Below are positions 5,046 to 9,009 of a DNA stretch of 10,832 bases, piece after piece. The DNA comes from an uncultured Erysipelotrichaceae bacterium (GTDB lineage Bacteria; Bacillota_I; Bacilli_A; Erysipelotrichales; Erysipelotrichaceae). The notes beneath the pieces were generated by a model. It worked only from the letters and a program-made list of their open reading frames with translations. It did no database searches and was not told where the DNA came from. A program made the position numbers and the translations under genes. Position 1 is the stretch's first letter. Each line of letters starts with the position of its first letter. Where the stretch lies: NCBI GenBank assembly GCA_964457525.1, contig CAYWGS010000051.1:1-10832 (forward strand). The letters run 5' to 3'.

Positions 5046-5071
5046 AGAAAAGCGTGGATTTCTCCACGCTT
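5046..5071 (-). terminator. Intrinsic terminator after the EF-G-like gene
   Basis: Minus strand: tAAGCGTGGAgaaaTCCACGCTTttct. The stem is 9 bp and GC-rich with a GAAA loop and a short T-tract. The stem begins within the TAA stop of the EF-G-like gene and ends 1 nt before the kinase SD, so it is probably leaky. Confidence 0.65.
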
Positions 5072-7151
5072 ATTCGTCTTCATCATCATCTAAGTTACGA
5101 GCCGCATGTGCTATAACTTTATCAGCGATTGGTTGAGGCGCTATTTCATAACGATCAAATCGTTGAGTATAAGTACCGATACCTTGAGTAAAGGATCTTA
5201 ACTCTGTTGAATAACGCATTACTTCAGACATAGGGACTTCTGCGGAGACGACTTGTTCACCTTCTTCATTGAGATCCATACCTAGAATCAAACCACGACG
5301 TTTATTGAAATCACCAATAATTGTACCAGTAAATTCTTCTGGCGCAACAACATCTAGTCGAACAATTGGTTCAAGTAGTACTGGTTTCGCTTGTGGCATA
5401 CCTGCTTTATAAGCAAGCTTAGCAGCCATTTTAAATGCAATTTCCTTGGAATCAACTTCATGATATTTACCATCAACTAAAGTCGCCTTAACACCAACGA
5501 CACGATAGCCAGCTAATACCCCTTTGTTCATCGCTTCTCTTAAACCAGCTTCAACTGCAGGGAAGTATTGTCGAGGAACTGCTCCACCGAATACTTTTTC
5601 TTCAAACACCATATCAAGTGAATCACATGGTTCAAAGGTAATGAATACATCCCCGAATTGTCCAGCACCACCCGATTGTTTCTTATGTTTACCTTCAACA
5701 GTAACGGTAGAACGAATGGTTTCACGATATGGAATACGCGGTTCTTTTAAATCTACATCTACTTTGTATTTAGTTTTAAGTTTATTGACAACTACATCAA
5801 GGTGCTGATCACCAAGACCATAAACAACGAGTTCATTAGTCTCAGTATTTTTAACCATCTTGAAGGATGGATCTTCTTCTTCAACACGTTGTAGTGAAGT
5901 ACTCATTTTATCTTCATCTAGTTTACTCTTTGGCCAAATACTCATCGCCAATAAACCTTCTGGGAATACAATTGGTTGATGTGTCACTAACTTAGCTTTT
6001 GTCGCTAATGTATCGTTGGTTTGAGTGTATTGTAATTTAACGATTGCGCCTAAATCACCTGTAAATAACTTACCAACAGCGAGTTGATGTTTACCCTTAA
6101 TAACAAATACTTGACTTACTTTTTCAGCTTTATCTTTTTGAACATTATAGACTTGAGTATCACTCGTTAAAGTACCACTCATTACTTTGATAAAGGAAAT
6201 CCTTCCTACAAATGGGTCAATAATTGTCTTATATACTAGCGCACTGAACGCTTCTGATTCATCTGTACGTAACGATACTATCTCACCATTCGTATCTTTT
6301 GCTTCTACAGTACCAAGTTCACCATAGGATGGGAAATATTCCCCAATTAAGTCCATAAGTCTTTCGATACCTAACATCTTAATTGCACTACCCGCATAAA
6401 CAGGTCTAATTTCACCAGAACGAACACCAAGTCTTACACCTTGAATGAGTTCCGCTTCAGTGAACACTTCACCTGAGAAGAATTTTTCCATCAATTCATC
6501 ACATGTCATCGCAATCGATTCACTGATTTGAGCTAAGTAATCATCTACAACCGGTTTTAACTCAGCTGGAACTTCCTTCGCATTTTCACGATCATTTAAA
6601 TACCATGCTTTGTTACGTAAGATATTTACAGATCCAACGATATTCCCATTTTCTACAATTGGTATTTCAAATGGAATAATTGTTTTTCCAAATTTCTCTC
6701 TTAATTGTGTATAGACTTTATCGAAGCTTGTATTTTCTTCATCTAATTTATTAATGAAGAAGATGGTAGGAATCTTACGTTTAGACACTTGTTTAAACGC
6801 TCTTAATGTACCGGTTTGAATACCGTCTTTACCATCTACTACAATAAGCGCATTATCCGCAACGGCTAACCCAGACTCTAATTCTTGTGCATAGTCGAAG
6901 TATCCTGGAGTATCGATAAAATTAATCTTATGATCCTTCCATTCAATTGGGGCAACAGATGTAAATATGGATAATCCACGTTTTACTTCTTCAGCATCAT
7001 AATCTAAAACAGACGTCCCATCGAGGGTTTTACCCATACGATCGGTTGCTTTGGTAAAGTAGAGCATCGATTCAACAATCGTCGTTTTACCGGAACCAGA
7101 GTGTCCAAGTAAACAAATATTCTTCACTTCATTCGCTGCATAATCTTTCAT
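5070..7151 (-). CDS. Elongation factor G paralogue (EF-G II / EF-G-2 type translational GTPase)
   Basis: 693 aa with full five-domain EF-G collinearity. Motifs seen: G1 GHSGSGKT, switch I RGLSI, G3 DTPGY, G4 NKLD, KKQSGGAGQFGDV, and the domain IV block DGKYHEVDSKEIAFKMAA. It is not in an rpsL-rpsG-fusA-tuf context. AGGGGA SD upstream. Confidence 0.9.
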   Translation of the reverse strand: MKDYAANEVKNICLLGHSGSGKTTIVESMLYFTKATDRMGKTLDGTSVLDYDAEEVKRGLSIFTSVAPIEWKDHKINFIDTPGYFDYAQELESGLAVADNALIVVDGKDGIQTGTLRAFKQVSKRKIPTIFFINKLDEENTSFDKVYTQLREKFGKTIIPFEIPIVENGNIVGSVNILRNKAWYLNDRENAKEVPAELKPVVDDYLAQISESIAMTCDELMEKFFSGEVFTEAELIQGVRLGVRSGEIRPVYAGSAIKMLGIERLMDLIGEYFPSYGELGTVEAKDTNGEIVSLRTDESEAFSALVYKTIIDPFVGRISFIKVMSGTLTSDTQVYNVQKDKAEKVSQVFVIKGKHQLAVGKLFTGDLGAIVKLQYTQTNDTLATKAKLVTHQPIVFPEGLLAMSIWPKSKLDEDKMSTSLQRVEEEDPSFKMVKNTETNELVVYGLGDQHLDVVVNKLKTKYKVDVDLKEPRIPYRETIRSTVTVEGKHKKQSGGAGQFGDVFITFEPCDSLDMVFEEKVFGGAVPRQYFPAVEAGLREAMNKGVLAGYRVVGVKATLVDGKYHEVDSKEIAFKMAAKLAYKAGMPQAKPVLLEPIVRLDVVAPEEFTGTIIGDFNKRRGLILGMDLNEEGEQVVSAEVPMSEVMRYSTELRSFTQGIGTYTQRFDRYEIAPQPIADKVIAHAARNLDDDEDE

Positions 7152-7163
7152 GACATAATTCCC

Positions 7164-7832
7164 CTATTTCAGTAACGGTTTAAGTTCCGTTAAACAATCA
7201 GTTCTAACATAATGAATTGCTTTATTACCTTCGGAATCAATAAGCTCTTTATTTGCACCATGATCAAGTAGGTATTGAACAAGCTCTGCATAACCACTGT
7301 AAGCAGCACGCATTAGAGCTGTGCAACCATTCTTGTCTTGTTCATTAATTTCAACGTTCTTATCGACCAATAGTTTAATAACATCGTATCTAAATGCTAA
7401 GCACGCTTCCATTAATACTGTACGACCCATTTCGTCTTTCGCGTTTACGTTTGCACCTTTTTTAAGAATTAAATCCACCACTTCATTGTGTCCTAAGAAC
7501 CCAGCACGCATTAATGCTGTACGGCCCTTAATGTCTTGAACATTCACATCAGCACCAGCATCCACTAACATCTTCACGATTTCGAAATGACCTTTTTTAG
7601 CAGCACCCATAAGTGCTGTCTTACCATTGTTGTCTTTCGCATTCACATCTGCACCGTGATCAATTAGATAACGCACGATTTTTTCATGCCCACGTTTTGC
7701 GGTGCGCATTAAAGCAGTTCTTGCTTCCGCATTACGAACATTGACGTCCGCTCCTTGGTTTAGTGCTGCGACGACTTTTTGAAAGTCACCACTTGCAGCC
7801 GCTTCCCAGAATAATTGATTTGTTTGATCCAT
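7164..7832 (-). CDS. Ankyrin-repeat protein (six 33-aa ANK modules), cytoplasmic
   Basis: The ORF track starts at TTG 7856, which has no SD. ATG 7832 is preceded by AAGGAGG with a 7-nt spacing. The repeat pattern G.TALM.A...GH.E.V..L...GADVNA.D recurs every 33 residues. There is no signal peptide or TM segment. Confidence 0.9.
   Translation of the reverse strand: MDQTNQLFWEAAASGDFQKVVAALNQGADVNVRNAEARTALMRTAKRGHEKIVRYLIDHGADVNAKDNNGKTALMGAAKKGHFEIVKMLVDAGADVNVQDIKGRTALMRAGFLGHNEVVDLILKKGANVNAKDEMGRTVLMEACLAFRYDVIKLLVDKNVEINEQDKNGCTALMRAAYSGYAELVQYLLDHGANKELIDSEGNKAIHYVRTDCLTELKPLLK
7182..7820 (-). repeat. Tandem 99-nt (33-codon) ankyrin modules within the ANK gene
   Basis: Protein-level periodicity: the T of TALM/TVLM falls at track residues 47, 80, 113, 146 and 179, with a degenerate cap at about 212. 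The DNA copies are diverged. Confidence 0.7.
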
Positions 7833-7862
7833 ATTGGTTCCTCCTTGGTTCTTCAAACAAAG

Positions 7863-7896
7863 AAAATAAAAAAGATGGACACACGTGACCCATCTT
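7863..7896 (-). terminator. Intrinsic terminator between the leader ORF and the ANK/EF-G-like operon (attenuator candidate)
   Basis: Minus strand: ttttTAAGATGGgtcacgtgtgtCCATCTTTTTTATTTTc. The stem AAGATGG (7896..7890) / CCATCTT (7878..7872) can gain two G-U pairs and is followed by TTTTTTATTTT. On the plus strand it is followed by an A-run, so it is minus-specific. Confidence 0.65.
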
Positions 7897-7990
7897 AAAA
7901 ATCATTCATAAAGCATTCACAGCCTAAGACATCAACCTCGGTTGTTTGATTGTCTTGAGTGACAAGAAAAACAATTTCTACCCTTGTCAT
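7895..7990 (-). CDS. 31-codon leader ORF (MTRVEIVFLVTQDNQTTEVDVLGCECFMNDF), putative regulatory leader peptide
   Basis: It is too short to appear in the ORF track. An AAAGAGGTG SD (8005..7997) lies 6 nt upstream of ATG 7990. The TAA stop (7897..7895) overlaps the first bases of the terminator 5' arm. The ORF lies between a promoter-like element and the terminator. Confidence 0.45.
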   Translation of the reverse strand: MTRVEIVFLVTQDNQTTEVDVLGCECFMNDF

Positions 7991-8022
7991 TATGAACACC
8001 TCTTTCCAAACTTTATAACTCC

Positions 8023-8050
8023 ATTGTAACCAATTTATTTTTTATTGCAA
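8023..8050 (-). promoter_or_regulatory. Putative sigma-A promoter for the leader/ANK/EF-G-like transcript
   Basis: Minus strand: TTGCAA (8050..8045), a 16-nt AT-rich spacer, then TACAAT (8028..8023). The predicted start near 8016 gives a leader of about 184 nt. Confidence 0.5.
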
Positions 8051-8070: not shown

Positions 8071-9009
8071 TTATTGCTTTGTTTCAGGATAAACATACTC
8101 CGCAAACTCAATATATTCTTCTGCTGTTAAGGTCTGATCTGTACTTTCATCAAACTGATGTTTACCATCTTGAAGGAATTGTTTTTTATCCAAAAGATAA
8201 TAAGAATATAGAACTCTTCCATCTCGATCAGGAATTGGATCATTGAATGTCGTGTCAATAAACTTCCAGTTTAAACCATCATAAACCAGATTCCATGCAT
8301 GAAACATACTGATTGAAGAAACCATTAGTGATGGAATATCTGCATCATGCGCCATTACATTAAAGGCTCTTGAGTATCCACTACATACCGCTGTATTGTA
8401 ATCAAAAACTCCTACAGCTGAAAAGGAAGGATGTTTGACAGATGCATTTAAAACAATTTCTAAAACACTTGTATCATATTCTGTATTAAGAACTATTTTA
8501 TCGTGTATTGACTTAATCTTCTCACGGATTCCCATATCTGTCGTGATGATAGAATCGTTCCATTCACTAGCACTATTAAAAATACGCTTATAGTCTGTAT
8601 CGTTAGGCTTGATTTCCAACGAATACAATGTCATCAAGACCACATCTTTTCGCGAGTAAGGAATTTCAGTAATCACGATATTAAACGTATATGGGATAAC
8701 ACTCTCGATATATGAAAATGTTCGATCAATCGATATTTCGTTATCACTCACATAATAGACTTTTAGTTGATCTTCTCTTTCTTGTAGAATCGATAATAGA
8801 GCGAGTTCTTTTTCATTTTCGATTCGATAAACTTCATCTTCATCGACATAACTTGGTAATCCAGCGAGTATAAATTGTCTATTTTCACCCGATATTCCTT
8901 TTATGATGATTGATTCATCCACTTCAGGACGCGAAGAAAAAATCGAACATGCGCCTAATTGAAGAATTATTAGTAAAATAAGTATCCGTTTTGTATAGTT
9001 TATCATCAT
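8071..9009 (-). CDS. Transglutaminase-like (Cys-His-Asp) lipoprotein, putative cysteine peptidase
   Basis: 312 aa. The signal peptide has lipobox LGAC (MMINYTKRILILLIILQLGAC). The C-terminal half carries the transglutaminase-core signature: AVCSGYSRAF (Cys), FHAWNLV (His), and WKFIDTT (Asp). The N-terminal ~190 aa match nothing I recognise. Confidence 0.75.
   Translation of the reverse strand: MMINYTKRILILLIILQLGACSIFSSRPEVDESIIIKGISGENRQFILAGLPSYVDEDEVYRIENEKELALLSILQEREDQLKVYYVSDNEISIDRTFSYIESVIPYTFNIVITEIPYSRKDVVLMTLYSLEIKPNDTDYKRIFNSASEWNDSIITTDMGIREKIKSIHDKIVLNTEYDTSVLEIVLNASVKHPSFSAVGVFDYNTAVCSGYSRAFNVMAHDADIPSLMVSSISMFHAWNLVYDGLNWKFIDTTFNDPIPDRDGRVLYSYYLLDKKQFLQDGKHQFDESTDQTLTAEEYIEFAEYVYPETKQ

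Follow-up and report, generated by a model that had tools for sequence, protein, structure and literature searches.

A conserved leader with a short open reading frame ending at an intrinsic terminator precedes an ankyrin/EF-G-paralogue operon of Erysipelotrichaceae and may act as a ribosome-dependent transcription attenuator

The stretch of DNA analysed here, called the window in the following, comprises 10,832 nucleotides of contig CAYWGS010000051.1 (assembly GCA_964457525.1) from an uncultured Erysipelotrichaceae bacterium and carries the genes of an ankyrin-repeat (ANK) protein and of an EF-G paralogue, which are preceded by a short leader. All leader, terminator and ANK/EF-G features are located on the minus strand of the window. 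A consensus scan identified a sigma-A-type promoter for the leader transcript (TTGCAA at 8050-8045, a 16-nt spacer and TACAAT at 8028-8023) in the gap between the leader open reading frame (ORF) and the stop of the upstream gene, a transglutaminase-like lipoprotein gene on the same strand which ends at 8071. The Shine–Dalgarno (SD) sequence AAAGAGGTG (7997..8005) is found 6 nt before the ATG (7990-7988) of the leader ORF (7895..7990), which has 31 sense codons (MTRVEIVFLVTQDNQTTEVDVLGCECFMNDF) and a TAA stop codon at 7897-7895. The AA of this stop codon forms the first two stem bases of an intrinsic terminator hairpin of nine pairs (7872..7896), and the hairpin is followed by the U-tract TTTT A TTTT CT (7861..7871), of which the TTTT-A-TTTT part reaches 7863. 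The SD sequence of the ANK gene, AAGGAGG (7840..7846), lies 17 nt beyond the U-tract, and the stretch from the terminator to the ANK start shows no evident second promoter. The ANK gene (7164..7832, ATG at 7832-7830) codes for 222 amino acids, was recognized by the Pfam Ank families and is the first of the two regulated genes. After a spacing of only 12 nt it is followed by the gene of the EF-G paralogue (5070..7151), which codes for 693 amino acids and was assigned by family profiles. The promoter, the SD sequence, the 31-codon ORF, the stop codon within the terminator and the ANK gene behind it had already been read at these coordinates in a preliminary description of the window, and all of them are confirmed.

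Considered for the window alone, the leader features are statistically unremarkable, and it is their conservation that makes them real. The window contains 42 promoter-like sites where 43 are expected and 7 terminator-like sites where 4.8 are expected from shuffled sequence, and the leader folds no better than its shuffles (z = -1.1). The preliminary description had also listed a chain of pairings in the leader. Two of these, TGACAAG with CTTGTCA and AAGACAATCAA with TTGATGTCTT, are indeed present in the minimum-free-energy fold, but the chain as a whole is only partly conserved: the hairpin at the start codon recurs in other lineages and the proposed antiterminator does not.

For the comparative analysis a search with the ankyrin protein was useless, as orthologues were swamped by generic ankyrin repeats. 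We therefore scanned one genome per species with EF-G, which yielded 80 loci, and additionally scanned metagenomes with a DNA pattern, which gave further lineages including a new clade (loci L090, L092, and L097). The final set comprises 24 distinct leaders from about a dozen diverged clades; one cultured carrier is Absicoccus intestinalis (locus L029). The exact EF-G protein of the window is present on many metagenome contigs in an identical context, and on these contigs the 31-codon ORF is called as a gene. In every Erysipelotrichaceae locus, down to an EF-G identity of 53%, the gene immediately before the EF-G paralogue is an orthologous ANK gene, with ANK identities between 49 and 96%. In Clostridia and other Bacillota no ANK gene is found directly before the EF-G paralogue.

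The architecture of the leader is conserved together with this gene pair. A promoter, an SD sequence with ATG, an open frame and a terminator overlapping its end are present in 23 of the 24 Erysipelotrichaceae lineages with the ANK/EF-G pair. The promoter is found in the same place as TTGnnn-16/17-TAnAAT, 21-50 nt upstream, all 24 leaders have an SD core 6-11 nt before the ATG, and the ORF has 19-33 codons in 23 lineages, mostly 26-32. The hairpin with its U-tract is present in 23/24 lineages, and a T-run after the stem in all leaders. The exception is L030, the sole ANK/EF-G pair without a leader, which has a plain promoter, SD sequence and ATG. An older origin of the leader together with the EF-G paralogue was rejected, as the clostridial paralogues without an ANK gene have neither a leader ORF nor a terminator. 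The gene upstream of the leader is transglutaminase-like in some lineages and unrelated in others. The preliminary description had considered that the hairpin might serve only as the 3′ terminator of the transglutaminase-like gene. The two are separated by a conserved promoter, and in lineages with another upstream gene the leader is still found with the ANK gene, so that the hairpin is more than a terminator of the transglutaminase-like gene. Thus, the assignment of the ORF–terminator unit to the ANK/EF-G-paralogue operon is strongly supported. A search of Rfam 15 at gathering thresholds returned no match at the leader. Below threshold, the L20 leader model gave 16.6 and 15.2 bits in two of three leaders examined (threshold 58.7) and nothing in L013. 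A known RNA family (riboswitch, T-box, or ribosomal-protein leader) was therefore rejected on the basis of the search with the window and two orthologues, the weak L20-leader hits being not reproducible. In the literature we found no paper on an ankyrin protein together with an EF-G paralogue in Erysipelotrichaceae, nor a description of the leader. The leader is a genuine, conserved and probably cis-regulatory element which, judged by these searches of Rfam and the literature, appears not to have been described before.

The peptide encoded by the leader is unconstrained. The peptide sequences differ between clades, and within clades the substitutions are spread evenly over codon positions 1, 2, and 3, unlike those of a protein under purifying selection. 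The frame, on the other hand, is kept open. In composition-matched shuffles the chance of an open frame is ∼0.16 per lineage, and the product over 18 leaders is 6e-15, a value which is overstated as the lineages share ancestry. The two alternative frames contain on average ∼2 stops each over the same stretch. In clade B every ORF has exactly 30 codons without insertions or deletions, although the ORFs differ at up to 35% of their nucleotides. The alignment of the orthologous upstream regions that had been proposed as a check shows that both the open frame and the juxtaposition of stop codon and terminator are kept. Judged by these patterns, it is the act of translating the leader that is conserved and not its peptide, and the 31-codon ORF should be annotated as a leader rather than as a hypothetical protein.

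Some constraint acts at the level of nucleotides. A run of 4-5 U directly before the 5′ arm of the terminator (UUUUAAGAUGG; 7898-7905 in the window) is found in nearly all lineages and in any reading frame. As it is kept whatever the frame, the constraint acts on the nucleotides, and the Phe codon that usually ends the ORF follows from it; the conserved U-run is a possible pause site of the polymerase. Several blocks inside the ORF are invariant within clades at the nucleotide level, e.g., the 14-nt block CCTGTCTTTGTTGT in the clade B leaders L013, L016, L018, L019, and L091, where the flanking codons differ by 30-40%. This block (L013:3224-3237, for example) could pair with the leader SD region via many G-U pairs. 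We also considered a -1 frameshift at U UUU UAA by which leader and ankyrin protein would be fused. The -1 frame of the window leader is indeed open and in phase with the ANK ATG, but the phase varies between lineages (stop offsets of 65, 64, 55, 70, 56, 73, and 69 nt) and the frameshift was rejected.

The position of the stop codon is conserved relative to the terminator. The nine pairs of the stem are kept over 16 aligned leaders, with G-U pairs and a few double changes, and the stability of the terminator is between -8 and -20 kcal/mol in 20 lineages. In all leaders the first base of the stop codon lies between 8 nt before and ∼12 nt after the base of the stem. In 16 of the 24 tabulated leaders the stop shares bases with the start of the stem, and TAA, TGA, and TAG are all used there. 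In four pairs of sister lineages (L020/L023, L024/L025, L026/L028, and L092/L090) a one-base insertion or deletion has shifted the frame, and the stop, displaced by only 2-4 codons, now lies in the loop or 6-8 nt ahead of the stem and in no case farther away. As the shifted stops stay near the stem, the rule is that the ORF must reach the terminator and not that a particular stop context is required.

We simulated a ribosome on the leaders by masking its footprint (P-site -12 to +14) at every codon and calculating how probable the terminator stem then is. In the unmasked leaders the terminator is formed throughout (P 0.83-1.0). When the ribosome is placed on one of the last 3-4 codons or on the stop, the terminator probability drops to about 0 in every lineage, whereas masking of earlier codons leaves it at or near the unmasked value in most lineages, so that masking at the end of the ORF is the sole loss of the terminator common to all lineages. 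This is the second of two mechanisms put forward in the preliminary description, namely the covering of the 5′ arm by a ribosome that has reached the last codons or the stop, and it also fits the conserved stop position. The geometry of the window agrees with this. For a ribosome whose A site holds the stop, the P-site codon begins at 7900, which is 35-37 nt from the expected release point 7-9 nt beyond the stem. In cryo-EM structures of expressomes the distance from the P site to the polymerase active site is 34 nt in the collided and 38 nt in the coupled state (bioRxiv 10.1101/2020.03.01.971028). Accordingly, the ribosome that follows most closely would sit on the last codon or the stop when termination is decided, and this placement would explain why the ORF must extend to the stem but need not go further.

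We suggest with moderate confidence that transcription through the leader is attenuated in a ribosome-dependent manner, the translating ribosome taking the part of the antiterminator, i.e., an occlusion mechanism of the pyrBI or pil1 class. The dedicated promoter would give rise to a leader RNA with a good SD sequence and a short ORF whose openness and length matter and whose product does not. The ORF would reach the 5′ arm of the intrinsic terminator or enter it by a few codons. If no ribosome is present while the polymerase synthesizes the 3′ arm and the U-tract, the hairpin is expected to form and the transcript to end at ∼7863-7868. If, however, the pioneering ribosome has arrived on the last 3-4 codons or the stop, its footprint would hold the 5′ arm and the polymerase would read through into the ANK and EF-G paralogue genes. 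Read-through would then gauge how closely the ribosome follows the polymerase, that is, ribosome loading and elongation rate versus the speed of transcription, and would not report a specific stall inside the leader. Termination, read-through and the signal sensed are what we infer from the sequences. Of the features by which the occlusion type is recognized, those that can be read from the DNA are present: a functional-looking ribosome-binding site (RBS), an intrinsic terminator and an ORF end within one ribosome footprint of the 5′ arm.

The first mechanism of the preliminary description was a stall-sensing attenuator with alternative structures resembling the trp, erm, or ABC-F leaders, in which an antibiotic, a hungry codon or the nascent peptide arrests the ribosome and the upstream segment thereby freed pairs with the terminator 5′ arm. 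For the window such an effect can be simulated. With a ribosome at codons 10-17 the terminator probability drops to 0.2-0.5, the chain of pairings is present in the fold, and more generally there are nucleotide-conserved blocks such as that of clade B and a GUCC motif complementary to the terminator arm which recurs in clades B, C, and D. Yet dips at internal codons occur in isolated lineages only, at a different position in each, and most clearly in the window. The dip is gone in L008, the closest other species with an EF-G identity of 92%, where the A of TGTCTTA is a C, and it is likewise missing in L012 and in almost all other lineages. The simulated effect of a stall at codons ∼9-15 that was to free TTGATGTCTTA is thus confined to this one sequence. 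In the search for upstream partners of the 5′ arm, moreover, the best one was no more stable than those of shuffles and was found at positions that are not conserved: the fraction of shuffles with a partner at least as good is 0.09-0.87 and amounts to 0.87 for the window, where the proposed TGTCTTA:TAAGATG duplex is weaker than in most shuffles. The candidate antiterminator duplexes, at -5 to -9 kcal/mol, do not exceed the terminator in stability (-8 to -12 kcal/mol). RNAalifold on 16 leaders returned two helices only, the terminator and the helix around the ANK start, and no antiterminator. A conserved antiterminator was thus rejected by ribosome-mask partition functions, by folds of truncated transcripts and by the duplex search against shuffles. 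Neither a regulatory codon run nor a conserved arrest peptide was found in the leaders, and sister taxa carry frameshifts, so that the analogy to antibiotic-sensing leaders is not supported. We regard stall sensing as unlikely.

In a sharper form of the second mechanism the hairpin would be blocked only while the ribosome waits at the stop for release or recycling; slow termination or slow RRF/EF-G-dependent recycling would then raise the EF-G paralogue and close a feedback loop. The position of the stop on the first stem bases in 16/24 leaders, with three different stop codons, the U-run and usually a Phe codon before it, the fact that the regulated gene is a relative of EF-G and the geometry, in which a ribosome at the stop covers the whole 5′ arm, are all in line with such a dwell sensor. 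It is nevertheless improbable, as sister lineages that have shifted the stop 6-8 nt upstream or into the loop have kept the element and as neither the stop context nor the last residues are conserved across the leaders; besides, only the first ribosome can affect termination, and its arrival rather than its departure is likely to be limiting. Alternatively, a trans-acting factor (the ankyrin protein, the EF-G paralogue, or a ribosomal protein) could bind the conserved hairpin and/or the helix at the ANK start and set termination or translation, the ORF being secondary. Operons related to translation are commonly autoregulated through binding to their leaders. In an otherwise freely diverging leader hardly any change is seen in the stem sequence, the flanking U-run, GTTTGAAC and ATGGATCAAACAAA, and ANK codons 2-5 are constrained at their synonymous sites. 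However, this explanation does not account for a frame that stays open up to the terminator, there is no conserved structured domain upstream of the terminator, and Rfam gave no match apart from the 15-17 bits for the L20 leader (against 58.7) in two of three leaders. The stem is also not specific to the leader, since the similar stem AAGATGGG/CCCATCTT belongs to an ordinary bidirectional terminator at 1918-1950. We thus give little credence to a trans-acting factor. Finally, there might be no regulator at all but a micro-protein gene with its own terminator or a leaky insulator, the ANK and EF-G genes being reached by constitutive read-through. Gene callers do annotate the 31-amino-acid ORF, the strength of the terminator is modest, and a second hairpin in the window overlaps the stop of the EF-G paralogue, so that stop-embedded hairpins do occur at ordinary gene ends. 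The peptide without purifying selection, the lack of an evident second promoter between terminator and ANK start and the retention of the arrangement over about a dozen diverged clades, tied to the ANK gene and not to the upstream gene, make this very improbable.

Several points weigh against occlusion by the ribosome. Premature 3′ ends, translation of the leader and read-through are each deduced from the DNA, and the simulations are equilibrium folds with an assumed footprint and do not describe kinetics. Occlusion needs a pausing or slow polymerase and a ribosome that catches up within ∼125 nt, and a conserved pause signal was not found in the leaders. Many Bacillota are thought to transcribe ahead of their ribosomes. 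The accessibility of the leader SD sequence does not differ significantly from shuffles in most lineages. In addition, not only the structure but also the sequence of the stem (UUUUAAGAUGGA...UCCAUCUU) is conserved, which occlusion leaves unexplained, and the predicted direction, less expression upon slower translation, is not obviously expected for a back-up translation factor.

Two further structures may modulate the leader and its output. The recurring start-codon hairpin, P1 (7960..7989, arms 7989-7983 and 7966-7960 in the fold of the window), contains the UG of the leader AUG. At least two AUG bases are paired locally in 18 of 23 leaders, although the statistics are weak (mean z -0.65), and the arms vary (UGACAAG/CUUGUCA, UGGGCAA/UUGUCCA, AUGCAA/UUGUAU, and AAAACA/UGUUUU). 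The mean pairing between RBS and ORF body is -12.1 kcal/mol for the leader versus -7.9 for ANK and -7.1 kcal/mol for EF-G (Wilcoxon p = 7e-5, with lineages that are not independent). Sequestration of the leader SD as a significant feature was rejected on the shuffle test, the comparison with the RBS of real genes being only suggestive. These data are suggestive of ribosome loading confined to a short co-transcriptional window, after which the ORF body would fold back on the start site; this would suit a gauge of coupling.

The second structure brackets the RBS of the ANK gene, beyond the coordinates covered in the preliminary description. Its 5′ arm TTTGTTTGA (7853..7861) is complementary to the 3′ arm TCAAACAAA (7819..7827), which corresponds to ANK codons 2-5, and the helix of 8-9 bp (UUUGUUUGA / UCAAACAAA) places the ANK SD sequence and AUG in a loop of 21-27 nt. 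Both arms are invariant in 16 leaders, with GTTTGA as the invariant part of the 5′ arm, and distant lineages have changed both arms jointly (CCUUGA/UCAGGG in L062, UUGAUUC/GAAUCAA in L075, and GAUUGAUC/GAUCAAAUC in L026). Synonymous change is suppressed in ANK codons 2-5, where the share of the top codon is 0.92 compared to 0.56 in the rest of the gene. L030, the only lineage lacking the attenuator, has no such helix either. The helix may act as a brake on translation, as a stabilizing element or as a binding site, and could in this way add a translational layer to the attenuator.

Among the described systems, the pyrBI (pyrL) and pyrE leaders resemble the one proposed here in that a leader ORF extends up to or through an intrinsic terminator and an antiterminator hairpin is not needed. 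In pyrBI a ribosome close behind the RNA polymerase prevents the hairpin, and in vitro a coupled ribosome lowers termination at pyrL (PMC10135430). On the contrary, the genes regulated here are unrelated to pyrimidine synthesis and belong to another phylum, and the pyrL ORF passes the terminator, whereas here the stop is usually at the base of the stem. In pyrL, which is 49% U, pausing senses UTP; the last 11 codons of the Erysipelotrichaceae leaders have a mean U content of 39%, and those of clade D are rich in A. A high U content ahead of the terminator is thus not universal, and UTP sensing as in pyrL, being unlikely for this reason, was rejected. The pil1/pil3 leaders of Streptococcus gallolyticus share with ours a Gram-positive host and a read-through that is set by the proximity of leader stop and terminator. 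In pil1, read-through is obtained with leader ORFs whose stop lies 4 bp ahead of the terminator or within it and not with those that end at least 28 bp upstream, and occlusion was confirmed by mutants of the ATG and of the stop (PMC3894217). There, however, the system is a genetic switch in which phase variation of GCAGA repeats alters the frame; here the stop is fixed in a position capable of the ON state, so that any regulation must be kinetic or physiological.

Other leaders are similar in part only. In tet(M) of Tn916 (orf12) a short leader ORF and a terminator likewise precede the gene of a GTPase of the EF-G family in Bacillota. According to the tet(M) model, faster translation of the leader lets the ribosome catch up with the polymerase and suppresses termination, but the model relies on rare codons, is poorly supported, and no toeprint was obtained on the leader RBS (bioRxiv 10.1101/2021.03.24.436905). 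In contrast to tet(M), the protein regulated here is not a ribosome-protection protein, and the leaders share no sequence similarity. The trp, his, ermK, vmlR/ABC-F, and bmrB leaders have in common with ours a promoter-proximal ORF with an SD sequence, an intrinsic terminator and the regulated gene, but they need an arrest peptide or regulatory codons as well as mutually exclusive terminator and antiterminator hairpins, neither of which is conserved here. If occlusion is correct, the Erysipelotrichaceae leaders would be a clean, family-wide natural example of terminator occlusion without antiterminator, sensor peptide or regulatory codons and a compact reporter to show if and at what times ribosomes keep up with RNA polymerase in relatives of the Mollicutes among the Bacillota.

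The EF-G paralogue matches best the NCBIfam EF-G subfamily NF009381 (863 bits, cut-off 583), and its closest solved relatives in the PDB are canonical EF-Gs. With 635 bits it is just under the cut-off of the canonical EF-G equivalog TIGR00484 (659), and as it also lacks DTPGH it does not qualify as canonical EF-G (fusA). Nor is it a tetracycline ribosome-protection protein by the NCBIfam model tet_protect (314 bits versus 775), and it is far below the EF-G2 family models (559 versus 890 and 556 versus 1000). Its switch II reads DTPGYFDY (6914-6891). Wherever the motif was found, in 70 of 85 loci checked, it is DTPGY or DTPGF (rarely with D, L, or A for Y/F) and not DTPGH; this includes all Erysipelotrichaceae loci with the ANK gene and also clostridial members without it. 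Catalysis by translational GTPases relies on the histidine of switch II, and as this residue is replaced, GTP hydrolysis by the paralogue is probably impaired. The G1 motif, GHSGSGKT (7106-7083) in the window, is GH-x-G-x-GKT in the Erysipelotrichaceae loci. In these respects, a G1 starting with G, a pattern known from EF-G2-type proteins (PMC12172202), and an altered GTPase centre (here His to Tyr/Phe), the paralogue resembles the Bacteroides EF-G2. It differs in its scores below the EF-G2 cut-offs, in being nearest to canonical EF-G in the PDB and in being always paired with the ANK gene in Erysipelotrichaceae. In Bacteroides, EF-G2 is controlled by a transcription factor and is not known to be controlled by a leader.

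The ANK partner is unusually conserved, with 95% identity where EF-G has 92%. The leader thus points to an uncharacterised conserved operon of an ANK protein and an EF-G paralogue without the catalytic histidine, and the tight, translation-linked control proposed for it suggests a role in translation under particular physiological states. A more far-reaching proposal, which we put forward as doubtful though conceivable, is that the leader gauges the kinetic state of the ribosome, either its coupling to RNA polymerase or its dwell at the stop codon, and in this way sets the level of the histidine-less and probably GTPase-impaired EF-G paralogue and its obligate ankyrin partner. If true, this would be a feedback loop between translocation/recycling capacity and an alternative translocase, operating in a lineage of the Bacillota in which functional transcription–translation coupling is not generally expected.

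Some other elements of the window are worth mentioning. The gene of the EF-G paralogue ends in a TAA which coincides in part with the base of a hairpin (AAGCGTGG-AGAAA-TCCACGCTT, 5050-5072, minus strand), which is followed by a short U-run and then immediately by the SD sequence of a PfkB-family kinase gene; this hairpin may be a second translation-sensitive partial terminator. The bidirectional terminator AAAAAGATGGGA-TTAATTAG-TCCCATCTTTTTT at 1918-1950 lies between two convergent genes, and its arms encode the identical C-terminal KRWD-stop of a GAF-domain protein (1457-1933) and of a methyltransferase (1934-2371). It shares the stem AAGATGG/CCATCTT with the terminator of the attenuator. The gene of a YuaJ/ThiT-type thiamine transporter (780-1301) is preceded on the minus strand by a TPP riboswitch at 1322-1418 (Rfam RF00059; 65 bits, which is above threshold).

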